Shown here in pieces: positions 6,000 to 44,351 of a DNA stretch of 64,000 nucleotides. The notes under the pieces are model-generated. The model worked only from the letters and a program-made list of their open reading frames with translations, was not told the origin of the DNA and searched no databases. A program made the position numbers and the translations under genes. Position 1 is the stretch's first letter. The number at the start of each line of letters is the position of its first letter. The DNA comes from Bacilli bacterium. GTDB taxonomy: Bacteria; Bacillota_I; Bacilli_A; RFN20; DUOF01. Location of the stretch: assembly GCA_017517765.1 (NCBI GenBank), contig JAFWYE010000010.1:2432-66431 (forward strand), read 5' to 3'.

Positions 6000-6542
6000 A
6001 TGGAAAAATATTGTGAGATAATCAGTAAATCATTAATCGATTTTGAAGAAATTAAAATGATACTAGCGAATAATAATGTGATGCTAATAAGTGGTAACCA
6101 AATTAATGATAGGGTATTTTTAAAAAATGGAGTTTCTTTATCTAGTTCTAATTATAAAACTATCGTAGATAATTCTATTGTTATTTCTAGTGTAAATGAC
6201 AAAAAATACCTTTTATATACAACTGGAGACTCTTATAATAAGCAAAGTAGTAAAATTGAAATTGTTAATGAAAAAGATTGCGAAGAATTTTTAAATCATA
6301 TTGGATTTAAAGAAACATTTGAAGTTGATGCTGATTGTTATACTTATTCAGATGGAAATAATAGTTTAAATATTATTAATCTTATAAATATTGGGCTATA
6401 TGTAAGTGTGAGAAAAGAAAATGCAACAGTAGATGAACTAAGGGAAATATTATCTTCATTTAATATTCCTTATGATGAGGCAGTTGTTGATGAGTCTATT
6501 GAAAAATTATGTGTAAATAAATTAAGGAGGCAGATGAAATGA
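6000..6542 (+). CDS. Hypothetical protein (about 180 aa), possibly a degenerate CYTH-like fold
   Basis: Clean ORF overlapping the lepB start by 4 nt (ATGA). No diagnostic motif. The C-terminal FLNHIGFKETFEV...LYVSV only loosely resembles CYTH domains. Confidence 0.5.
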   Translation: MEKYCEIISKSLIDFEEIKMILANNNVMLISGNQINDRVFLKNGVSLSSSNYKTIVDNSIVISSVNDKKYLLYTTGDSYNKQSSKIEIVNEKDCEEFLNHIGFKETFEVDADCYTYSDGNNSLNIINLINIGLYVSVRKENATVDELREILSSFNIPYDEAVVDESIEKLCVNKLRRQMK

Positions 6543-7255
6543 AAAAAACTTGTTCTGTATGTAATGGGAGAGTTAAATTTGATGTCGAAACTCAAAAATA
6601 TAAGTGTATAAAGTGTGGCCAAGAATATTTGGAATCTGTTACAAGTGAAGTTAAAGAAAAGGAATCTAAAGAAGAAAAAGATCCTAAAGAAATGATTAAA
6701 TCTATAGTTAGTTGGGTATTAACTATTGTTATATGTTTAGTTAGTGCTAAATTATTTACTACTTTTGTAATAAGTAGTGTTGAGGTAGATGGTACATCAA
6801 TGTATTCAACTTTGGATGATGGTGATAAGGCATTAACTGATGCATTATTTTATAAAATGGGTAAGATTAATAGATTTGATATTGTAATTATAAAAATGGA
6901 TAGTGGTCCACATAAGGGTGAAAAACTAGTTAAAAGAGTTATTGCATTACCTGGGGAGACAATAGAGTATAAAAATAGCACTTTATATATAAATGGTGAA
7001 GTTGTTGAGGAAGACTTTATTGTTGATTTAGCTAAAGAAGCTACGGGTACTATAATTGAAACAAAATTAGGTGAAGATGAATATTTTGTTTTAGGAGATA
7101 ATAGAGGGGCTTCAAGTGATTCTAGAAGATTTGGAGCAGTTGAAAAAAGTGAAATTAAGGGTAGAGGTCTTTTAAGATTTATGGTTTGTACTAAAAAGGA
7201 TAGTAATGGAGAGTGTAGCAAACGTAAGTTTATTTGGCCTAGTGTAGTAGATTAG
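6539..7255 (+). CDS. lepB: Signal peptidase I (S26) with an N-terminal CxxC...CxxC zinc ribbon
   Basis: Catalytic boxes GTSMYSTL, VKRVIALPGE and GDNRGASSDSR. One TM segment follows the N-terminal CSVCNGRV...CIKCGQ. Confidence 0.85.
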   Translation: MKKTCSVCNGRVKFDVETQKYKCIKCGQEYLESVTSEVKEKESKEEKDPKEMIKSIVSWVLTIVICLVSAKLFTTFVISSVEVDGTSMYSTLDDGDKALTDALFYKMGKINRFDIVIIKMDSGPHKGEKLVKRVIALPGETIEYKNSTLYINGEVVEEDFIVDLAKEATGTIIETKLGEDEYFVLGDNRGASSDSRRFGAVEKSEIKGRGLLRFMVCTKKDSNGECSKRKFIWPSVVD

Positions 7256-8139: not shown

Positions 8140-8762
8140 TGGCTTCAATGGAATATGAAAATAAGTACTATGAACTTGGTTACAAAAGTGTTATGGGAAT
8201 AGATGAAGCAGGTAGAGGGCCTCTTGCTGGTCCACTTGTAGTTGCAGGTGTTATATTTCCTAAGGGTTATGAAAATAGCCTTATAAATGATTCTAAGCAG
8301 TTAAGTGAAGCAAAAAGAGAATCATTATATGAAGTGATTAAAAAAGATGCATTACATATTATAGTCAAAATTATTGATGAAAGAACTATTGATAAATTAG
8401 ATATTTATCATGCAACCAAATGGGCTATGGAAGAAATAGTTAAAGAAGCTAATGATAAATGTGATGCAGTATTAGTAGATGCAATGAAAATAGAGGTCAA
8501 GGATAAAGAGATATTACCACTAGTTCATGGTGATGCTCTTTCAACTTCAATTGCAGGAGCTTCAATTATTGCTAAAGTTACTAGGGATCATATAATGTAT
8601 GAGTTAGATAAAAAATATCCTGAATATGACTTTAAAAATAATAAAGGGTATGGAACAAAAAAACATATGGAAGCGATTGATAAGTATGGTATAAGAGAAT
8701 GTCATAGAATGTCTTTTGCTCCGGTATATAAAGCAGCAAGTCAAATGAAATTAGATATATAA
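8139..8762 (+). CDS. rnhB: Ribonuclease HII
   Basis: GIDEAGRGPLAGPLV active-site motif. The rbgA-rnhB order is conserved in Bacillota. Confidence 0.9.
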   Translation: MASMEYENKYYELGYKSVMGIDEAGRGPLAGPLVVAGVIFPKGYENSLINDSKQLSEAKRESLYEVIKKDALHIIVKIIDERTIDKLDIYHATKWAMEEIVKEANDKCDAVLVDAMKIEVKDKEILPLVHGDALSTSIAGASIIAKVTRDHIMYELDKKYPEYDFKNNKGYGTKKHMEAIDKYGIRECHRMSFAPVYKAASQMKLDI

Positions 8763-8775
8763 GAAGGTGATTTAG

Positions 8776-9864
8776 GTGAAAATAGAGTTTGAAACAAAAA
8801 TAAATGAACTATTAAACTATTTTCATTCTAATAATATAGAGGCATATCTTGTAGGTGGATTTATTAGAGATTATTTAACTAATAAAACTTGCTATGATTT
8901 AGACTTTTGCCTTGTTTCCTCTTATAAAGAAGCCTTGGATGCATTGAAATCTAAATATAGACTTGAACATATCGATGAATATGGTTGTATCAAGTTTAAA
9001 ATAGGTGAATATGATATTGAGATTACTCATGCAAGAAAAGAAAGAGAGTATCTTGATTATAGACATCCATATGTAATTGAATTTACAAGTGATTTAAGTA
9101 TAGATTGTTTGAGAAGAGATTTTACTATTAATGCTTTGTATTATAAAGATGGAGAGTTTTATGATTTTTGTGGTGCAATGGAAGATATAAAAAGTAAAAC
9201 TCTAAGAGTAATAGGTGATACATTAACAAGATTTAAAGAAGACCCATTAAGAATACTTAGAATGATAAGATTTTCTTGTTATGATTTTGATATATCTATC
9301 AATGATAAACAAATTATTAAAGATAATGCTTATTTATTAAAAGAACTTAGTGAAACATCTTTTAATAAAGAATTTGATAAGATATTAATGCTTAATAATC
9401 TATATATAATTAATGAATATAAAGATCTATTTGAAAATTATTTTGACATTAAAATAAAAAAACTAATTAATCTCAATAAACTAACTTCCCTAGAAGAAAA
9501 GAAGACTTTTTTAGGTATTAAAAATAAATCTAATTTGTATAAATATCGTGATTTAAAATTATATAAAGATAAGTTTGAAATTAATAAACTTATTTACAAA
9601 TATGGTGATACAGTAATTAAGGAATTATTATCTTATGATGATAAGCTTAATGAAAGAGGGCTAATGAGCATTTATAATGATATTATTCTTAATGGATATT
9701 ATTCGAAAAAGGATTTAAAGATAAATCCTAATAAGATAATAGAACTAACTAATAAAAAAGAGTTAACAAGCTATTACATTGATATGATTTCCTATGAGAT
9801 TATGAAAGGAAACTTAATTAATGAAGAAAAAGAAATAATAAAATTTTTAGAAAGGTTGATATAA
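8776..9864 (+). CDS. cca: CCA-adding enzyme / poly(A) polymerase-family tRNA nucleotidyltransferase
   Basis: YLVGGFIRDYL...DLDF head-domain motifs and RRDFTINAL. Confidence 0.6.
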   Translation: MKIEFETKINELLNYFHSNNIEAYLVGGFIRDYLTNKTCYDLDFCLVSSYKEALDALKSKYRLEHIDEYGCIKFKIGEYDIEITHARKEREYLDYRHPYVIEFTSDLSIDCLRRDFTINALYYKDGEFYDFCGAMEDIKSKTLRVIGDTLTRFKEDPLRILRMIRFSCYDFDISINDKQIIKDNAYLLKELSETSFNKEFDKILMLNNLYIINEYKDLFENYFDIKIKKLINLNKLTSLEEKKTFLGIKNKSNLYKYRDLKLYKDKFEINKLIYKYGDTVIKELLSYDDKLNERGLMSIYNDIILNGYYSKKDLKINPNKIIELTNKKELTSYYIDMISYEIMKGNLINEEKEIIKFLERLI

Positions 9865-35808: not shown

Positions 35809-36957
35809 ATGGCACAAAATAAAAGAGACTATTATGAAGTCTTGGGTATAGATAAAAGTGCGGATCAAGATACAATAAAGAAAGCATATAGAACACTTGC
35901 TAAAAAATACCACCCTGATATTAATAAATCTGAGGATGCAGTAGAAAAATTTAAAGAAGTACAAGAGGCTTATGAAATATTAAGTGATGAGAATAAAAAA
36001 TCTCTGTATGATCGTTATGGTCATGCAGGGGTTGATCCTCAAGCTAATGGTGGCTTTGGTGCTGGTGGATTCGGTGGAGCCAATGGTTTTAATTTCGGCG
36101 AATTCGATATGGGAGATATTTTCTCTTCTTTCTTTGGGGGAAGAGGTGCATCTCAGGGCGCTAGACGAACTTCACCTATGCAAGGAGAAGATAAATATCT
36201 TCAAATGGAAATTGACTTCTTAGAGGCGGCTTTTGGATGTAAAAAAGTTATTGCTTTAAATGTTGATGAACGTTGTAACGAGTGTAAGGGAACTGGTGCT
36301 AAAAATGGTACTGAGTTTGAAACTTGTCCTGATTGTCATGGTCATGGTAGTGTAAGAACACAACAAAGAACAATGTTTGGTGTATTTGAAACAACAACTA
36401 CATGTCCAAAATGTAATGGTAAAGGTAAAGTTATAAAAACTAAATGTGATGCATGTCATGGAGAAGGATATAACAGAAGAAAGGTTAATGTTGATGTAAA
36501 TGTACCTGCGGGTATAAATTCTGGACAACAACTTAGAATTGCTGGTAAGGGTGAAAGAGGAATTAATGGAGGTCCTAATGGGGATTTATATATCGAAATT
36601 CTTGTTTCAAACCATAAGCATTTTACTAGAAAAGGTACTGATATATACGTGACAATTCCTATATCATATGTCGATGCTGTTCTTGGATGTAAGATAGATG
36701 TTCCTACAATTCATGGTGATGTAAGTGTTGAGGTGCCATCTGGTATTCAAAATGCACAACAACTTAGAATTAAAGGTAAGGGTATAAAAGACTTAAGAAG
36801 CAATTCGATTGGTGATGAATATATAATTTTGGATATCAAAGTTCCTACTAAGTTATCTAAAGATGAAAAAGAATTATATAAAAAGCTTAAAGGAATTGAA
36901 GAAAAGCAAGGAGATAGTATCTTTGCAAAGTTTAAAAAAGCATTTAAATTAAAATAA
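35809..36957 (+). CDS. dnaJ: Molecular chaperone DnaJ
   Basis: J domain with HPD, a G/F region and four CxxCxGxG repeats. Confidence 0.97.
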
Positions 36958-36986
36958 GAGTTGAGTTTACTTAACTCTTTTTTTTC
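36956..36986 (+). terminator. Rho-independent terminator after dnaJ
   Basis: 10-bp stem aagagttgag / cttaactctt, loop ttta, 8-T run. Confidence 0.8.
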
Positions 36987-37105
36987 TTATTAGTATAATA
37001 AGAATATGTAGTTAATTGTAAAAAATTGTAAATCAGTGTTATTTTTTTAAAATTATAAGTTAATTTATGGTTTAAAATAACAATCTTTTTAAAAGAAAAG
37101 TTCAA

Positions 37106-37137
37106 TTATTGATTTAACAATCAATAAAAAGTATATT
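37106..37137 (+). promoter_or_regulatory. Candidate promoter plus inverted-repeat operator upstream of the four-gene cluster
   Basis: The inverted repeat ttattgat-N6-atcaataa (37106-37127) overlaps a -35 TTGATT (37109-37114). A 17-nt spacer leads to the -10 TATATT (37132-37137). Confidence 0.35.
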
Positions 37138-37146
37138 GGAATATAG

Positions 37147-37857
37147 GTGGAGGGGATTAGTATTAGTAAGAGATATTATTGGAAGAAAATCAGAGTGGCA
37201 TTGCTAATTCTAGCTTTTGCTATTACTTGGTTTTTACTTGTCCTTGCAATTAATGACAATACAAATGGTAATATGACTATTTATGTAGATAAAACTACTG
37301 CTAAAAAAACGCTTAGTTTATCTGAGTCTAGTCAGCTTACTGATCCAACAGGATTATTATATGGTCCATCAATGACTGGGGCTTGGGATCAAGATCCAGG
37401 TGCATTACCAGATTATTCGGATTTAATTGATGGAGACCAAAGTAGATTTGATGGTGCAATTTATGATTCTAGCCCTTCTGTAAATAAATATGTTGGTCAA
37501 AATTATTTGGCTTACACTTTCTATTTGTTTAATAGTGGTAGCGAGTCACTTGATTATTCTATGAAATTTAATATAGAACATGAAGAAAAATCTTTAGGAG
37601 ATGCCATTAGAGTTAGAGTATATGAAGATAGCGAAATTCCTACAACATATGGAAGAGAAGATTCTAGAGCAAGTGACGTATTTACTAATTTTGAAAATTC
37701 TACAACTATATTTACTAGAAACTATGAGGATTTTGAGGTGAATCAAGTCAGAAAATATAGTATTGTAATTTGGATTGATAAAAATGACATAGATACAACT
37801 AATGAAAAGATTGGTGGATCAATTAACTTGTCTATCCAATTTACGGTTACAGGATAG
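37147..37857 (+). CDS. Cluster gene A: signal-anchored or secreted protein (236 aa), paralog of gene B, possibly a TasA/camelysin-like beta-sandwich
   Basis: Basic n-region KRYYWKKIR plus a hydrophobic segment VALLILAFAITWFLLVLAI. The C-terminal motif is KYSIVIWIDKNDIDTTNEKIGGSINLSIQFTV. The start is uncertain because the GTG at 37147 lies inside an SD-like AGGTGGAGGGG. Confidence 0.6.
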   Translation: MEGISISKRYYWKKIRVALLILAFAITWFLLVLAINDNTNGNMTIYVDKTTAKKTLSLSESSQLTDPTGLLYGPSMTGAWDQDPGALPDYSDLIDGDQSRFDGAIYDSSPSVNKYVGQNYLAYTFYLFNSGSESLDYSMKFNIEHEEKSLGDAIRVRVYEDSEIPTTYGREDSRASDVFTNFENSTTIFTRNYEDFEVNQVRKYSIVIWIDKNDIDTTNEKIGGSINLSIQFTVTG

Positions 37858-37870
37858 GGGAGTGAGTGAT

Positions 37871-38698
37871 ATGAATTTTTTGAAAAAGTTATCTCTCTAT
37901 ATATGTATATTTGTTTTGACTATTAGTGTTTCATCTGTTGTTTATGCTGGGTTTACTAGACAATATACTCCTCAAGTAAAATCGTTTGGTATTACTGTAG
38001 CAACTCAAGAAAACATGCTTATCTCTACAACAGGAGATCCTTCAACATTTGCTGATATGGTTCAATTTTCTGATTTGGTTTCTAGTACAGATACTAATAT
38101 CCAACCATTAGAAGCAACAATTGAAGAAACTGGTAATGATTATACTAATCTTATTTTGAAAGATGGCGGAGGAAATACGGTATATACAAGTAAAACATCT
38201 GATGATAACGTTAATGTTAATGAAAAATATATAGAATTCAATTTGTATTTTATTGGAAGTAGCGATATGAATTTATATCTAGGGAATGATAGTGTTAGAA
38301 ACATTATTACATTAGATGAAAGTTCTACTGCTAATTTGAGTTTTACTGCAACTCAAAAGCAAACTTTATTATCTAGTATGAGAATAGCATTTCTAACATA
38401 TGCTACAACTTATCCTGAAGATTATACTGGTATTAATATAAGATATAGCGATTCGCCTGTATCTGCAAATATTTACTCAGTTTCTGCAACTGGAGATACA
38501 TATGAAGATTATATGTTTACTGAAGTTGGATATAACACAACTACTAGAGAAGGAACTATACTTGCTGAAACAATAAAAAATGAAACAACAAAGATAAAAG
38601 TTGTTATTTGGCTTGAAGGTGCCAATTTGGATACATCAATACTTAGCGCAATTGCTGATTTGAAATTTAATATAGCATTTCAAGCTGTTAAAGTTTAG
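37871..38698 (+). CDS. Cluster gene B: secreted protein (275 aa), paralog of gene A
   Basis: The ATG follows the RBS GGGGAG. The signal peptide MNFLKKLSLYICIFVLTISVSSVVYAGFT ends like SipW/TasA-type signal peptides. The C-terminal motif KIKVVIWLEGANLDTSILSAIADLKFNIAFQAV aligns with that of gene A. Confidence 0.65.
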   Translation: MNFLKKLSLYICIFVLTISVSSVVYAGFTRQYTPQVKSFGITVATQENMLISTTGDPSTFADMVQFSDLVSSTDTNIQPLEATIEETGNDYTNLILKDGGGNTVYTSKTSDDNVNVNEKYIEFNLYFIGSSDMNLYLGNDSVRNIITLDESSTANLSFTATQKQTLLSSMRIAFLTYATTYPEDYTGINIRYSDSPVSANIYSVSATGDTYEDYMFTEVGYNTTTREGTILAETIKNETTKIKVVIWLEGANLDTSILSAIADLKFNIAFQAVKV

Positions 38699-38712
38699 AA
38701 GGGAGAATAGAT

Positions 38713-40599
38713 ATGTCTGGATTTACAAAATTTTTTGGAAGAATAATGTCGGTTTTATGGAAAGATATCATAGCTTTCTTTAAGAGCATATTTGATTTTA
38801 TTGTAGGTATATTTCAAAAACTTATTAGTGATTTTTCTTACTATAAGTCAGTTTTTGATTTATATTCACAAGATTTCGATGCTTTAGGATGGATATTATT
38901 TGTTTTATCTATTTTATTAGTTTTAGGTTTATTTGCTCTTTTAGTTTGGGGTATCTATAAGATAAGTAAAAGAAGGTACGTTGCTAAAAGAAAAGTTAAA
39001 GATAAAATTGTTCTTTTAAGAGAAATAGATAAGTTAAATAATAAAGTTATTGACTTGATGGATCAAAGAAGCCAATTATTAGCATTAAAAACAGCTGAAC
39101 TTGGGTATGCTCCAACTAAAGAGGATTTAAAGAAAATTGAAGCAGCTAGAAAAAGAGCACAAGAAGCAATTGATAATCCTGAAGAAAATAAGTATGTTGG
39201 ATTTAAATTTAAAACAACTAAGAAAGGTGCCCCTGTATTTGATAAAAGAGGATTACCTGTTATTGAGCTTGAATATAAGCTTGGAGAAGATGGAAAACCT
39301 TTATTAGATGAAAATAAAAAACCTATACCTTTAATTGAATTTAAAACAGATAAAAAAGGTAAAATTTTATTTGATGCTAATGGATTACCAATTCCTGTTG
39401 ATCCAGTTGCTGCAGAAAATCAAATTGAAGCAGATAAAGCACTTGAAGGTGAAGGAAATCAAGAAGTTGGTGAAGATGGAGAAGCAATTCCTAGTGACTT
39501 AATTGCTAAAGCTAGATTCCCTAAACTTATTCGTATTGACTGGGACTATAGAAACTATGAATTTCCTGGTATGACAGAAGAAGATAAAAAGATGAATTTA
39601 AAAGAACTTGTAGATCGTTTTAGAAATTTCGCTGCAGGAAAATTACATCTATACTATAGTTTTAGAACTTTAGCATTATTCTTCTCTGGAATGGGAACAA
39701 CAAGATTTGCTATTCTTGAGGGTATCTCAGGTACAGGTAAAACTTCACTTCCATATGCATTTGGTAAATTCTTTAGAAATAGAAGTCCTATCGTTGCTGT
39801 TCAACCTTCATGGAAGGATAGATCAGAACTTATTGGATATCTAAATGAGTTTACTAAGAAGTTTAATGAATCTGTTTTCCTTGAAGAATTATATAAAATT
39901 GCTAAGCAAAAGGACCCACATATTTTGGTTCTAGACGAAATGAACTTGGCTCGTATTGAGTATTATTTCGCTGACTTCCTATCTATCATGGAAATGCCTA
40001 GTATGGATGAATGGATTATTGAAATTGTTAATACTGACCTTGAAGGTGACCCTGTGTTACTAGACCATGGTAAGTTCCTTATTCCAAAGAATGTTTGGTT
40101 CCTTGGAACAGCTAATAACGATGACTCTACATTCTCAATTACAGATAAGGTTTATGACCGTGCTATGAGTATGTCACTTAATAAAAAGACTGAAGTATTC
40201 GAACCTGAATGGGATGCAGATAGTATGTATATGGACAATGAGTTCTTTGTACAACTATTTGAAGATGCTAAAGCTAAATATTCAATTAGTGAAGAGGCTT
40301 TATCTAAGTTAGCTGCAATTGATAAATATATGGTACAAAACTTCAAGATTTCTTTCGGTAACCGTATCATGAAACAATTCAGATTATTTGTTCCTTGTTA
40401 TATTGGTTGTGGAGGAGAAGAATATGATGCGCTAGACCACCTTATTACACGTAAGATTTTACATAAACTAGAAGCATTGAATATTTCATTCATTAAGAAT
40501 GAATTAAAAGGATTAATTGTAGAAATTAATAAACAATTTGGAAAAGATGCATTTAGCGATGCAAAAGAATATATTAATGACTTATTGAAACAAGTATAA
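38713..40599 (+). CDS. Cluster gene C: membrane-anchored McrB-family AAA+ NTPase (628 aa)
   Basis: TM segment at aa 57-82, followed by a basic cluster. Next come a coiled coil, three 20-aa repeats, and Walker A GISGTGKT (39721-39744). Walker B and the McrB signature read LVLDEMNLARIEYYFADFLSIME (compare E. coli McrB DEINRANLSKVFGEVMMLME). GTANNDDST corresponds to GTMNTADRS. Confidence 0.7.
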   Translation: MSGFTKFFGRIMSVLWKDIIAFFKSIFDFIVGIFQKLISDFSYYKSVFDLYSQDFDALGWILFVLSILLVLGLFALLVWGIYKISKRRYVAKRKVKDKIVLLREIDKLNNKVIDLMDQRSQLLALKTAELGYAPTKEDLKKIEAARKRAQEAIDNPEENKYVGFKFKTTKKGAPVFDKRGLPVIELEYKLGEDGKPLLDENKKPIPLIEFKTDKKGKILFDANGLPIPVDPVAAENQIEADKALEGEGNQEVGEDGEAIPSDLIAKARFPKLIRIDWDYRNYEFPGMTEEDKKMNLKELVDRFRNFAAGKLHLYYSFRTLALFFSGMGTTRFAILEGISGTGKTSLPYAFGKFFRNRSPIVAVQPSWKDRSELIGYLNEFTKKFNESVFLEELYKIAKQKDPHILVLDEMNLARIEYYFADFLSIMEMPSMDEWIIEIVNTDLEGDPVLLDHGKFLIPKNVWFLGTANNDDSTFSITDKVYDRAMSMSLNKKTEVFEPEWDADSMYMDNEFFVQLFEDAKAKYSISEEALSKLAAIDKYMVQNFKISFGNRIMKQFRLFVPCYIGCGGEEYDALDHLITRKILHKLEALNISFIKNELKGLIVEINKQFGKDAFSDAKEYINDLLKQV

Positions 40600-40620
40600 T
40601 TAACAGTTAGGAGTGTTATA

Positions 40621-42306
40621 ATGGCTACTGATATAATTAAGAAATTTTGGGATAAATTAAGCCGTAGGCATGATAATCTTGGCAGAGATGATTCTTTTTA
40701 CGCACTTTTTTCTAATGGCTTTGATAGAGCTAAGATTAAGCTAGATCATATCACTAGAGTTGTAGTTAGAGAGTATGATGAAGAAACATTAAAGAAAATA
40801 GAAGATGGATTAGTAGCCATAGACACAATTGTAAGAAATCCTAAGCAATTCCTGAAGGTTGATGATGAAATCATCCCAGTAGAACTTGCTAAAAAAGTAA
40901 ATCAAGATTCTATTAAACATTTATCTAGCCATTCTCATCTTATTAATAGAGTTGAAGATGATGGAATGGTTATGCCAACTAGAATTCTTACTGGATTAAA
41001 AGATGACACTATTAATTTGTATGAGAACAGATTTGTTAGATCTCTTATTATTAACTTAGTTACTTTCTTTGATAGAAGATTTAGTGAGTTTTTAGATGAT
41101 GTAGATTTTTCATCTATGACTAAATTAGATAATAAAACTGCTTTTGTAGTAAGAAATTCTCAAATTAATTTAGATTTGCAAATGACTATTGTTACAGATA
41201 ACTTCAATAGAGATGACATTATTCAACTTGATGACTTATTTAGAAGAGTTGCTTGGATTAAGCATACTCTAGCTAAGTTATATGACTCTGATTTTATGAA
41301 GAGGCTTAATGGAGAAAAATTGGTAGTAGGTGAAATAAAAAGAACTAATACTATTAAAGGACACCCTCAATACAATATTTGCTATCATTTATGGAATCAC
41401 ATCATGAACTATCAAGGCATGGTTTTAGATTTTAGGGTAGAAGAAATTCCTATTGTTTTAAGCGATAAATATAAAAAGAAAATGAATAAGGCTTTCATGT
41501 ATCTTCATGGGGCAATTGATGCAGCTCAAAAAGATAATGAAAAATATGTTGAAGCATTAAATAAATCTTTAAATCTTAATATTAAACAGGGTAAAGTTAA
41601 GCTTATCAAGGATACTATTGATAGAAGCCAAGTTGAAGTTGTTAAAGAGGAACTTGATAAAACTATCTTTAAACCCGAACAACAAAAAGCTCTTGATAAA
41701 CTTTATGCAGAAAAAGAAAAACTTGAAACTCAACTTTCAGAGATGAAAGAAAGACATAGAGAAAAAGAAAGAGAAAATAGGGAAATGGAAGCTAATAAGA
41801 AAGAGTTCATTATCCTTAAAGAAAGAGAAATTAAAGATTTATTGAGAATGAAGCAATATGCCAAGGATAGTGCTGTTGTTAGAGCAAGAGATAAGAAAGA
41901 AAAAGAAATCGCTGCTCAAGAAGCTAAAAAAGTTGCGATTGTTAGAAATAAGAAATATGATGTTGTTTCTAAACTTGTTTCTTGGGAAGATAAGAAGAAA
42001 ATTAGTGAAAGAAGTATTGAGAAAGCTAATGGAAGTAAAGTTCTTCTTAATAGAGAAATTAAAGCTGGTATTAGAGTGGAAGAAAATACAGCTGAATTAA
42101 AGAAGATTGAGGCAGATATTATTCAATGGAATAAAACTATTGAAATGGCTAAGAAAAAGCGTGTTATTTTAGAGCAAGAAGAAGAGAGACTACAAGCTCA
42201 AATTGATAAAATTAATGCTTCTAATAAAGCTAGAAGAGAGAAACGTAGAGCAATATTGAAAGAAAAGAATAATCGTTTGATGTCTCAATATGAAGATTTA
42301 AAATAG
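40621..42306 (+). CDS. Cluster gene D: McrC/DUF2357-like N-terminal domain fused to a roughly 220-aa Lys/Glu-rich coiled coil (561 aa)
   Basis: It sits immediately downstream of the McrB-like gene. The LYENRFVRSLIINLVTF motif (41020-41040) resembles the xENRF[VIL] motif of DUF2357/McrC-like partners. No clear PD-(D/E)xK motif is visible. aa 335-561 carry a heptad-like K/E/R-rich sequence. Confidence 0.55.
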   Translation: MATDIIKKFWDKLSRRHDNLGRDDSFYALFSNGFDRAKIKLDHITRVVVREYDEETLKKIEDGLVAIDTIVRNPKQFLKVDDEIIPVELAKKVNQDSIKHLSSHSHLINRVEDDGMVMPTRILTGLKDDTINLYENRFVRSLIINLVTFFDRRFSEFLDDVDFSSMTKLDNKTAFVVRNSQINLDLQMTIVTDNFNRDDIIQLDDLFRRVAWIKHTLAKLYDSDFMKRLNGEKLVVGEIKRTNTIKGHPQYNICYHLWNHIMNYQGMVLDFRVEEIPIVLSDKYKKKMNKAFMYLHGAIDAAQKDNEKYVEALNKSLNLNIKQGKVKLIKDTIDRSQVEVVKEELDKTIFKPEQQKALDKLYAEKEKLETQLSEMKERHREKERENREMEANKKEFIILKEREIKDLLRMKQYAKDSAVVRARDKKEKEIAAQEAKKVAIVRNKKYDVVSKLVSWEDKKKISERSIEKANGSKVLLNREIKAGIRVEENTAELKKIEADIIQWNKTIEMAKKKRVILEQEEERLQAQIDKINASNKARREKRRAILKEKNNRLMSQYEDLK

Positions 42307-42314
42307 GTGATTAT

Positions 42315-43037
42315 ATGCAAGAGTATTTTGCGATTAATAAAATAAATGAAAAATTTATCTTGTCTGAACAAGATAATTTTCATATTGAAAGAGTTTTAAG
42401 AATGAAAAATGGTGATCATATAATAGTCACTTATGAATCTAAAAAATATGATTGTATTATTGATTTTAAAAACGGATTAAATGTTACGTATTTTTGTGAG
42501 TTAGAAGTTTCTAATGAGTTAGAATGTGAGGTTACTTTAATATATGGATTGCCAAAAAAAGATAAATTTGAAATGGTAGTACAAAAAAGTTGTGAACTAG
42601 GTGTTACTTCTATTGTCCCTTTTTTAGCTAAAAGAAGTATTCCTGTACTTGATGATAAAAATACAAATAAGAAGTTAGAAAGATGGAATATGATTGCTAA
42701 AGAAGCATGCGAACAATCAAAAAGAAATGAACTAGTTAAAGTTGTTCAACCAGTGAAATTAAAAGATCTATTAAACTATAAAAGTGAACTTAATTTGATT
42801 GCATATGAAGATTTAAATTGTGTTGGTAGTAGTCATTTATATTCACTTCTTGGAAATAATCCTAAAAGTATTACAATAGTTGTTGGACCTGAGGGTGGAT
42901 TTGATAAAGGTGAAGTAGATTTCTTAAGTGAAAATGGATTTATTTCTGTATCTTTAGGAAAAAGAATACTAAGAAGTGAAACTGCACCTTTATATATGCT
43001 TAGTGTCATTGGATTTATGAATGAGAGGAATAAGTAG
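42315..43037 (+). CDS. rsmE: 16S rRNA (uracil1498-N3)-methyltransferase
   Basis: RsmE layout with a C-terminal GPEGGF...E......G...VSLG.RILR.ETA. Confidence 0.85.
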   Translation: MQEYFAINKINEKFILSEQDNFHIERVLRMKNGDHIIVTYESKKYDCIIDFKNGLNVTYFCELEVSNELECEVTLIYGLPKKDKFEMVVQKSCELGVTSIVPFLAKRSIPVLDDKNTNKKLERWNMIAKEACEQSKRNELVKVVQPVKLKDLLNYKSELNLIAYEDLNCVGSSHLYSLLGNNPKSITIVVGPEGGFDKGEVDFLSENGFISVSLGKRILRSETAPLYMLSVIGFMNERNK

Positions 43038-44351
43038 ATGAAAAGTTTCTTAACTGTAAATTTAGGATGTAAAGTTAATGCATATGAGTGTGATGCTATT
43101 GCTAATATTTTAGAAGATAATGGATATATACTAGATGAGAATAATCCTGATCTTATAGTCATTAACACTTGTAGTGTTACTGCTACAAGCGATAGTAAAT
43201 CTAGGCAAAAAATACGAAGAATAATAAAGGAAAACCCAAATTCAATTATTTGTGTTATGGGATGTTATAGTCAAATTGCTCCAGAAGAAGTAAGTGCAAT
43301 CGAGGGAGTTAGTATTGTTATAGGTACTAGATATAGAGACAGAATTTTAGAATATGCACTTGAATTTGAAAAGAATAAAAAGCAAATTATTAAAATTGAT
43401 AATGCTAGAGAAAATAGTGAGTATGAAAACTTAACTGTATATAATTTTTATGATAATACTAGAGCATACTTAAAAATTCAGGATGGTTGTAATAATTTTT
43501 GTAGTTATTGCATAATTCCCTATACTAGAGGGTTAGTGAGAAGTAAGCCTAGAGAAACGGTATTAAAGGAAGCTCAAATATTAGCAGATAAAGGATACAA
43601 GGAACTTGTATTAACTGGTATTCATACGGGTGGATATGGGTTGGATTTTGAAAATTATAGATTTTATGATTTATTAAAAGACTTAATTAATGATGTGAAA
43701 GGAATTAAAAGGATCAGAATTTCTTCGATTGAAATTAATGAGCTTACAAATGAGGTTATAGAACTTATTAAATCTAATAATATTATTGTTAATCATATAC
43801 ATATTCCTATTCAATCTGGTTGTGATAAAACCCTAAAAGCAATGAATAGAAAGTATAACCTTGCTCAATTTGAAGAAAGAATAAAAATATTAAAAGACAA
43901 TATTGAAGATTTAAGTATTACTACGGATGTAATTGTAGGTTTTCCAAATGAGAGTGATGAGGATTTTGAAATTACTTATAATACACTTAAAAGAATCGGA
44001 TTCTCTAGACTACATGTATTCCCATTTTCATCTAGAAAAGGAACTGTTGCTAGTAACATGAAGAATCAAATTCATGGAGATATCAAAAAAGAACGCGTAA
44101 ATAGGCTAATTTTGCTTTCTAAGGAGCTAGAGAAGGAATATTACTCTAAGCATCTAAATAAGTCTGTAGAGGTCTTATTTGAGGAAAATAAGGAGGGTTA
44201 TTATAAGGGACTTACCACTAATTATTTGAAAGTTAGAGTTAAGAGCGATGAAAATGTTTCCAAATGCTTTAAACAAGTTAAACTAAATAAGATAATAGAT
44301 GTAGGAATGGACTATGAAATAGAGGGGGAAATTATAGATGAATTATGCTAG
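43038..44351 (+). CDS. mtaB: tRNA threonylcarbamoyladenosine methylthiotransferase MtaB
   Basis: UPF0004 N-terminal domain, radical SAM motif CNNFCSYCIIP, and a TRAM domain. It follows rsmE as in Bacillus (yqeU-yqeV). Confidence 0.85.
   Translation: MKSFLTVNLGCKVNAYECDAIANILEDNGYILDENNPDLIVINTCSVTATSDSKSRQKIRRIIKENPNSIICVMGCYSQIAPEEVSAIEGVSIVIGTRYRDRILEYALEFEKNKKQIIKIDNARENSEYENLTVYNFYDNTRAYLKIQDGCNNFCSYCIIPYTRGLVRSKPRETVLKEAQILADKGYKELVLTGIHTGGYGLDFENYRFYDLLKDLINDVKGIKRIRISSIEINELTNEVIELIKSNNIIVNHIHIPIQSGCDKTLKAMNRKYNLAQFEERIKILKDNIEDLSITTDVIVGFPNESDEDFEITYNTLKRIGFSRLHVFPFSSRKGTVASNMKNQIHGDIKKERVNRLILLSKELEKEYYSKHLNKSVEVLFEENKEGYYKGLTTNYLKVRVKSDENVSKCFKQVKLNKIIDVGMDYEIEGEIIDELC

Follow-up and report, generated by a model that had tools for sequence, protein, structure and literature searches.

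Anchored and secreted beta-sandwich paralogs, predicted parts of a TasA-like fibre, in a four-gene McrBC-linked cluster of an uncultured Bacilli bacterium

The tapA-sipW-tasA operon of Bacillus subtilis encodes the TasA fibre, whose exported beta-sandwich subunit is accompanied by the peptidase SipW and by TapA, an accessory protein that starts or anchors the fibre. Loci of the TasA superfamily usually come with a TIGR02228 peptidase, with accessory anchors and with genes of cyclic di-GMP (c-di-GMP) signalling. In the sipW-bsaA-bsaB-bsaC operon of Clostridium perfringens, SipW-dependent TasA-like subunits occur as paralog pairs, and oligomers of BsaA are reportedly attached to the cytoplasmic membrane, not to peptidoglycan (PMC11580942). 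Archaeal filaments of the superfamily (AbpA, PDB 7ueg; AbpX, 9sj2; Tafi; the cannulae protein CanA) are chaperone-free donor-strand fibres of acidic jelly-roll subunits. To our knowledge, the only described role of McrBC-type GTPases is that of motors in restriction or defence. Bell et al. (2024) named a class, CoCoPALM, in which NxD-clade McrB GTPases are fused to an FtsB-like transmembrane/coiled-coil domain, both the McrB and the McrC homologues carry coiled coils, and signal-peptidase-family genes are associated; they give the class two sentences, defer its description, and infer "pilus assembly" from the peptidase alone. Here we describe a cluster in which pilus-like surface proteins meet an McrBC-derived GTPase, found in a 64,000-nucleotide stretch of contig JAFWYE010000010.1 (assembly GCA_017517765.1; hereafter the window, about 28% G+C). 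The genome (1.55 Mb, 97% complete) is that of an uncultured gut-type Bacilli bacterium. The cluster consists of two genes for related surface proteins, A and B, followed by an McrB-like and an McrC-like gene:

37147..37857, + strand: gene A, membrane-anchored beta-sandwich paralog, predicted fibre base, 236 residues from GTG
37871..38698, + strand: gene B, exported paralog, predicted polymerising subunit, 275 residues from ATG
38713..40599, + strand: McrB-like GTPase with an N-terminal transmembrane segment, coiled coil and Lys/Gly/Pro repeats, 628 residues
40621..42306, + strand: McrC-like protein with a DUF2357 N-terminal domain and a long charged coiled coil, 561 residues

The explanation that best accounts for this cluster, at a probability of roughly 0.58, is a TasA-like donor-strand fibre encoded by a minimal four-gene CoCoPALM cluster, with A as its membrane base and B as the subunit that polymerises. 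Genomic context is the strongest evidence for it. The McrB-like and McrC-like genes downstream place the A/B pair in the CoCoPALM class, and A and B are probably the missing "pilus" part of that class.

Both downstream proteins carry the marks of the class. The McrB-like protein has weak AAA_5 and McrB matches in Pfam and NCBIfam at residues 334-488, a single transmembrane segment (near residues 58-82) with a basic stretch and then heptad-rich sequence behind it, and a GTANNDDS motif that fits the NxD+D signature of Bell et al. The McrC-like protein has PF09823 (E 5.8e-9, residues 64-171) as its sole Pfam match, followed by about 220 residues of charged heptad-like sequence; the Pfam scan gave no nuclease-domain match. 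Compared with the published class, the window thus shows an McrB-like protein with N-terminal transmembrane/coiled-coil and NxD(+D) features and a partner that joins DUF2357 to a coiled coil, and 41 of 44 related loci have a neighbouring gene of the signal-peptidase family. It differs in that this genome lacks the signal peptidase included in the published definition, and in that subunit families are defined here.

These context counts cover the 44 species loci whose sequence continues for 7.5 kb or more downstream of A. The B family is present in 41 of them, a SipW-type peptidase in 41, the McrB-like family in 42 and the McrC-like family in 40, and all five families occur together in 37. The complete loci carry one to three B-family copies each, and 23 of these 37 have two SipW copies. 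In locus L001, the SipW-type peptidase scores 84 bits on TIGR02228 (cut-off 51.85). In Bacilli, Clostridia and Acholeplasmatales alike, the A, B, McrB-like and McrC-like families occur together, accompanied in nearly all cases by one or two SipW-type peptidases, and by this pattern of co-occurrence the McrB-like and McrC-like genes are obligate partners of A and B. Neither the text nor the searched supplements of Bell et al. (2024) mention the subunit families, and neither Pfam nor NCBIfam contains them. No follow-up literature linking McrB with SipW or TasA was found; PMC11580942 was considered as such a link and set aside, as mcrB appears there only in an E. coli genotype.

Two further arrangements were seen among the relatives. 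The distant, Clostridia-type cluster L003 is flanked by an EAL gene (323-1021) and a GGDEF/EAL gene (8511-9770), flanks that would fit the regulation of a matrix or fibre system by c-di-GMP. In four Eubacteriales loci (L013, L014, L022 and L084), a second block with two B-family genes and a SipW gene lies downstream of the McrC-like gene.

The original prediction for this region, made from the letters of the DNA alone, held that A and B are divergent secreted paralogs with a shared C-terminal motif, and profile comparison bears out the paralogy. Pairwise BLASTP of A against B recovers only the C-terminal motif, at E 0.009. With hhalign, the A family (76 sequences) and the B family (67 sequences) align over 121 columns with a probability of 99.1% and an E-value of 5.3e-19, the successive profiles having given 85%, 93%, 98.4% and 99.1%. 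The homologues were collected by a word-indexed search (14 for B, 96 for A) and a degenerate-pattern scan of species genomes, which finds the A family in 176 of them. The profile alignment pairs NYLAYTFYLFNSGSES with KYIEFNLYFIGSSDMN, AIRVRVY of A with SMRIAFL of B, and KYSIVIWID..IGGSINLSIQFTV with KIKVVIWLEG..ADLKFNIAFQAV. The three blocks aligned in the original prediction are exactly the region covered by these 121 columns, so that the blocks themselves are real; the positions given for the motif are off by 2-3 nucleotides, since the codon of K203 in A begins at 37753 and that of K241 in B at 38591. A hidden Markov model (HMM) of the B family, run over the whole genome, matches only B (2.5e-43) and A (7e-9). 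The profile alignment and the genome-wide result together show that the paralogy is real.

Conservation within the two families follows the same pattern. R155 of A, which corresponds to R171 of B, and the W-x-E/D-x-x-D motif are conserved across both, and AYTFY, R155, W209 and D214 of A are invariant or nearly so in the A family. The paralogy spans the C-terminal two-thirds of the domains; in the N-terminal thirds the predicted strands are collinear, and sequence similarity is not significant. Residue W+8 of the motif (W-x-E-G-x-D-x-D-C; 37771-37779 in A, 38609-38617 in B) is a cysteine in most members of the A and B families, and it has been lost jointly from both paralogs in the window's clade and in Acholeplasmatales. 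Raw counts across loci L006-L091, which ignore phylogeny, give 44 loci with cysteine in both, 20 with cysteine in neither and 14 mixed. This co-variation hints at a shared or contacting A-B site, with which it is compatible, for example a disulfide or a metal site.

The two paralogs are predicted to differ in how they leave the cytoplasm. A had been described as having an uncleaved-looking signal anchor and B as the exported unit, a division that agrees with the transmembrane layout of the A family and with the cleavable signal peptide predicted for B. The N-terminus of A is basic and cytoplasmic (SKRYYWKKIR) and leads into a transmembrane helix at about residues 17-35, where a 19-residue hydrophobic stretch reaches a Kyte-Doolittle value of 2.94 and the AlphaFold2 model has a helix at residues 6-37. 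The ectodomain is acidic and beta-rich (isoelectric point, pI, 4.3) and ends in a V-I-W-I-D-x-x-D-x-D-T...IGG motif. All A-family members in the open reading frames (ORFs) of the loci, from Clostridia to Acholeplasmatales, share a variable cytoplasmic tail, a transmembrane segment and a G-x-F-x-V sequence, and none of those examined has a cleavage motif of the B type. The best reading of A is accordingly that of an uncleaved N-in/C-out anchor, a topology to which the AlphaFold2 helix and the positive-inside N-terminus also point. The true start of gene A may be the rare ATT codon at 37162, not the GTG at 37147. A strong Shine-Dalgarno sequence, GGAGGGG (37149-37155), lies 6 nucleotides 5' of the ATT, the GTG overlaps this sequence and has no Shine-Dalgarno of its own, and the ATG/GTG starts of the orthologues in L009 and L001 (MSKR...) align exactly with the ATT.

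For gene B, the ORF-opening ATG at 37802 was rejected as the start; GGGGAG precedes the ATG at 37871 and all homologues begin with MKFLKK, which fixes the start at 37871. The signal peptide, MNFLKKLSLYICIFVLTISVSSVVYA|GFTRQ, has the classical n-h-c form and ends in VVYA|GFT, and its hydrophobic segment lies within an AlphaFold2 helix at residues 2-30. The N-terminal hydrophobic segments of both A and B are thus confirmed by the models and by the Kyte-Doolittle scan. The mature domain of B is acidic and beta-rich (pI 4.2) and ends in V-I-W-L-E-G-x-x-L-D-T...FNIAFQAV. Both ectodomains contain 12-16% Asp plus Glu (pI 4.2-4.3), an acidity like that of AbpX-type Ca-responsive matrix proteins. Both AlphaFold2 models are usable: that of A has a mean predicted local distance difference test score (pLDDT) of 83, and that of B has a pLDDT of 75 and a predicted TM-score (pTM) of 0.77.

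A sequence scan found no cysteine, no LPXTG-type motif (LPXT[GAS]) and no HExxH in A or B, which bears on several other identities. A sortase pilin is rejected for want of LPXTG in either protein, a type IV pilin for want of a class III leader (G|FTLIE-type), and a spore-coat or camelysin protease for want of HExxH; an earlier suggestion of a spore-coat role found no support. It is hardly credible that A and B are pilins of the sortase-dependent or type IV kind, or that their similarity is a chance or low-complexity artefact. A generic Ig-like fold is the only point in favour, and besides the missing motifs, the profile-profile E-value of 5e-19 and purifying selection on both genes speak against it.

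The region around the predicted cleavage site of B resembles that of TasA. Among the 67 B-family members, the consensus is [AV]-T-[YF]-A-W-F-[ST]; position -3 is T or S in 60 of them, position -1 is A in 60 and position +1 is W in 59. The cleavage region of TasA is G-T-W-A|A-F-N, the mature chain (PDB 8aur) beginning with AFN, and the B-family motif resembles this T-W-A|A-F-N. The original prediction had likened the end of B's own signal peptide to SipW-dependent ones; by eye, VVYA|GFT does resemble GTWA|AFN, but the model for SipW-type signals, TIGR04088 (cut-off 19 bits), does not match B, reaches at best 15.5 bits in the family (the member from L013), and gives 38 bits for the TasA control.

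The remaining sequence tests do not connect the families to TasA either. The TasA/camelysin model PF12389 matches neither A nor B at E<=1 in the Pfam/NCBIfam searches, and none of the 67 B-family members at E<=0.01. NF046066 and TIGR04088-04090 reach their cut-offs in none of the 67+ family members examined, against 509 bits for the TasA control on NF046066. When the A and B families were compared by hhalign with an alignment of 36 TasA sequences, seeded with one that was confirmed to be identical to PDB 8aur, the probabilities were 0.2-2.9%. A first A-family profile matched AbpX among PDB sequences at E 0.08; because this match was lost with the broader profile of 76 sequences, it is not counted. 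B-family profiles found nothing among PDB sequences, or noise such as a pectate lyase at E 0.07.

These results bear directly on the proposal, made in the original prediction, that A and B belong to the TasA/camelysin family. Diverged true membership of that family (Peptidase_M73, PF12389) would be in keeping with the similarity of the signal-peptide motif, with the SipW linkage in relatives, and with the best hhalign alignments, insignificant as they are, which place TNEKIGGSINLSIQFTV on QNKYQGNSIKLQFSFEA of TasA and TYAWFS on TWAAFN. It is nevertheless very improbable, since every HMM and HMM-HMM test failed while the TasA controls scored 509 and 38 bits, which refutes membership at the family level. 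The proposal is thus partly supported: right in spirit, in that A and B look like exported SipW-type beta-sandwich paralogs consisting of an anchor and a subunit, and wrong as a statement of family. The original prediction had overlooked the two downstream partner genes.

At the level of fold, the same proposal fares better. In a Foldseek search of 350,542 PDB chains, the model of B finds the TasA fibre 8aur first (E 1.1e-3, probability 0.69) and AbpA pili 7ueg second (0.66), and the model of A finds self-complemented FimA (0.99), TasA 8aur (0.96) and AbpA 7ueg (0.95), with low TM-scores for both models. The expected TasA-like fold is favoured by rank, with TasA and AbpA at the top for B and high for A, and weakened by TM-scores of 0.21-0.38 and by other sandwiches mixed into the lists. 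The match of highest probability for A, to the chaperone-usher pilin FimA, would suit an incomplete Ig-like fold that a donor strand completes; unlike the FimA system, this monoderm-type genome has no chaperone or usher, and the TM-scores are 0.29-0.38. From the structural models and the context together, A and B are probably TasA-like in fold and mechanism.

Comparison with the described systems shows both shared features and differences. Like the tapA-sipW-tasA operon, the cluster encodes an exported beta-sandwich subunit with a cleavage region of the form T-aromatic-A|x-F, has SipW in its relatives, and pairs the subunit with a second protein, as TasA is paired with TapA. It differs in having no detectable sequence homology to TasA and no SipW here, in that A is predicted to be an integral membrane anchor and is a true paralog of B, and in its obligate McrB/McrC-like pair, which is absent from TasA loci. 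The bsa operon shares the arrangement of TasA-like subunits as paralog pairs, but BsaA, with its isopeptide-joined subunits, is a member of the TasA HMM families (TIGR04090), whereas A and B match none of these models, and McrBC-like genes are missing from the bsa operon. Archaeal filament loci often adjoin a TIGR02228 peptidase, and those of Tafi include a membrane anchor; the differences are that the only sequence match is the marginal, non-robust one to AbpX, and that here the hosts are bacterial and an McrBC-derived partner is present.

The window's cluster stands apart from most of its relatives in having lost its peptidase gene. The earlier observation that the window holds no SipW and only a LepB-type enzyme proved correct and extends to the whole genome: a SipW-type peptidase (TIGR02228) is absent from the window and from the entire 97%-complete assembly, as well as from the closest species genome and from loci L087-L091. 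The SipW of the sister genomes is exactly the in-cluster copy, and metagenomic relatives down to 40% identity in B keep the order A-B-McrB(-McrC) without it. Since SipW is missing here and present in the clusters of the sister clade, the window cluster is a derived, peptidase-less variant. The remaining candidate for processing B is the following gene:

6539..7255, + strand: LepB-type signal peptidase (Ser-Lys), the sole type I signal peptidase of the genome

This protein scores 136 bits on TIGR02227, the single match in the genome, and 13 bits on TIGR02228, which matches nothing elsewhere in the genome. SipW-less sequences have V or A at position -3 of the predicted B cleavage site (VYA|G, AYA|G; window 37937-37951), and the family members with T or S at this position (60 of 67) nearly all come with SipW. 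The loss of SipW together with a canonical (A/V)-x-A site suggests that the processing of B has probably passed to the housekeeping LepB. Loss of the peptidase has not released the cluster from constraint. Against L089, the ratio of nonsynonymous to synonymous substitution rates (dN/dS) comes to 0.09 in A, 0.08 in B, 0.03 in the McrB-like gene and 0.05 in the McrC-like gene, compared with 0.05 for dnaJ; these ratios are approximate because dS is near saturation (0.7-1.2). All four genes are under purifying selection in the SipW-less clade. As an observation apart, the LepB carries a CxxC...CxxC zinc-ribbon-like segment N-terminal to its transmembrane helix, which is unusual for LepB. A wall-less organism was also considered and rejected, as mraY is present.

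Several of these findings weigh against a TasA-like fibre. The Foldseek TM-scores of 0.21-0.38 come with E-values of only about 1e-3, and glycoside hydrolase family 31 (GH31) domains, integrin domains and adaptin mu2 are interleaved with the pilin matches. No link to the TasA superfamily at the level of sequence survived the HMM, hhalign or AbpX tests. The loss of SipW and the shift from T to V/A at -3 form one clade-level event and are not statistical evidence, and T at -3 is acceptable to LepB-type enzymes too.

There is some evidence for a different view of the cluster, in which A and B do not polymerise but act at the surface as an adhesin, a coat layer, or an extracellular sensor or receptor. 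They would work with, or signal to, an McrBC-derived membrane GTPase, for example in envelope defence or surveillance, and no fibre would be made. McrB and McrC relatives are overwhelmingly defence systems (Bell et al. 2024), A and B have no sequence homology to any known fibre subunit tested, the fold matches are weak with many non-pilin beta-sandwiches scoring alike, and in the window's clade A and B are each single-copy and SipW is absent. We regard this view as unlikely, though it is the main alternative, because the McrC-like partner has no nuclease-domain match, because near-universal dedicated SipW-type peptidases and up to three B paralogs per locus are typical of TasA-type fibre loci, because TasA and AbpA are the very top structural matches for B, and because a pair of anchored and secreted paralogs mirrors the anchor-plus-major-subunit logic of known fibres.

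If A and B do form a TasA-like fibre, assembly might proceed as follows. B would be exported by Sec and cleaved after YA, its processing having been handed from SipW to the housekeeping LepB in the window's clade. It would then polymerise by donor-strand complementation, inserting its N-terminal strand into the sandwich of the next subunit, as in TasA, AbpA and AbpX. A would accept or donate the first strand, in a TapA-like or membrane-anchor role; since A would be unable to leave the membrane, it would tether the fibre to the cell. At the cytoplasmic face, a ring of the McrB-like protein with its McrC-like partner may gate, regulate or power assembly, and the short conserved cytoplasmic tail of A is a candidate contact for these two proteins.

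A broader interpretation reaches beyond this locus. An exhaustive profile search of a 1.8-billion-protein library yields 3082 cluster representatives of the B family at E<=1e-3. Tentatively, and with less confidence than in the local reading, A and B could represent a new, very large family (>3000 cluster representatives) of filament subunits in Gram-positive bacteria and Mollicutes, made up of anchored base and secreted polymerising paralogs whose assembly is gated or driven by a domesticated McrBC GTPase complex, the four-gene, SipW-less operon being its minimal self-sufficient form. In hundreds of species from gut and rumen and among the Mollicutes, an McrBC-type GTPase is a fixed member of an operon that also encodes pilus-like surface proteins, which implies that the GTPase has been re-used for surface assembly.

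The class had been named (CoCoPALM, 2024) but was uncharacterised. Beyond that naming, the present analysis defines two subunit families and shows them to be paralogous, one anchored and one secreted as predicted, and it adds evidence from fold and context toward TasA-type donor-strand fibres, while TasA membership at the sequence level fails. With four genes, single subunit copies, no giant adhesin and no dedicated peptidase, the window's operon is perhaps the most tractable version of the system. If the fibre reading is true, GTPase-gated filament assembly would be a principle without studied precedent, one in which the dedicated peptidase is dispensable and the GTPase pair is not.

The cluster follows hrcA-grpE-dnaK-dnaJ and a terminator; its four genes stand one after another on the + strand, and rsmE comes next at 42315. 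The gaps from A through B, the McrB-like gene and the McrC-like gene to rsmE are only 13, 14, 21 and 8 nucleotides, so the four genes are almost certainly co-transcribed. Two features lie upstream of gene A:

36956..36989, + strand: intrinsic terminator of dnaJ, the 5' boundary of the cluster's transcription unit
37108..37137, + strand: candidate promoter TTGATT-17-TATATT from a promoter scan, with its function inferred only

The terminator scan of 36800-43200 found no further terminator-like site, and none between A and rsmE. Promoter-like sites in the scan are not enriched over shuffled sequences. A perfect palindrome, ATTGATT-TAAC-AATCAAT (37108-37125), contains the candidate -35 hexamer just 5' of gene A, and it is kept together with the -10 hexamer in L087, L088 and L006; it is possibly an operator.

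The slot between dnaJ and rsmE (window 35809-43037) is kept throughout the Bacilli lineage (L001, L087-L091), and clostridial versions of the cluster lie at other genomic positions. In the gene order of Bacillus subtilis, the corresponding position is occupied by prmA. In the sister clade, the same slot holds A, B, SipW, the McrB-like gene and the McrC-like gene, in that order.

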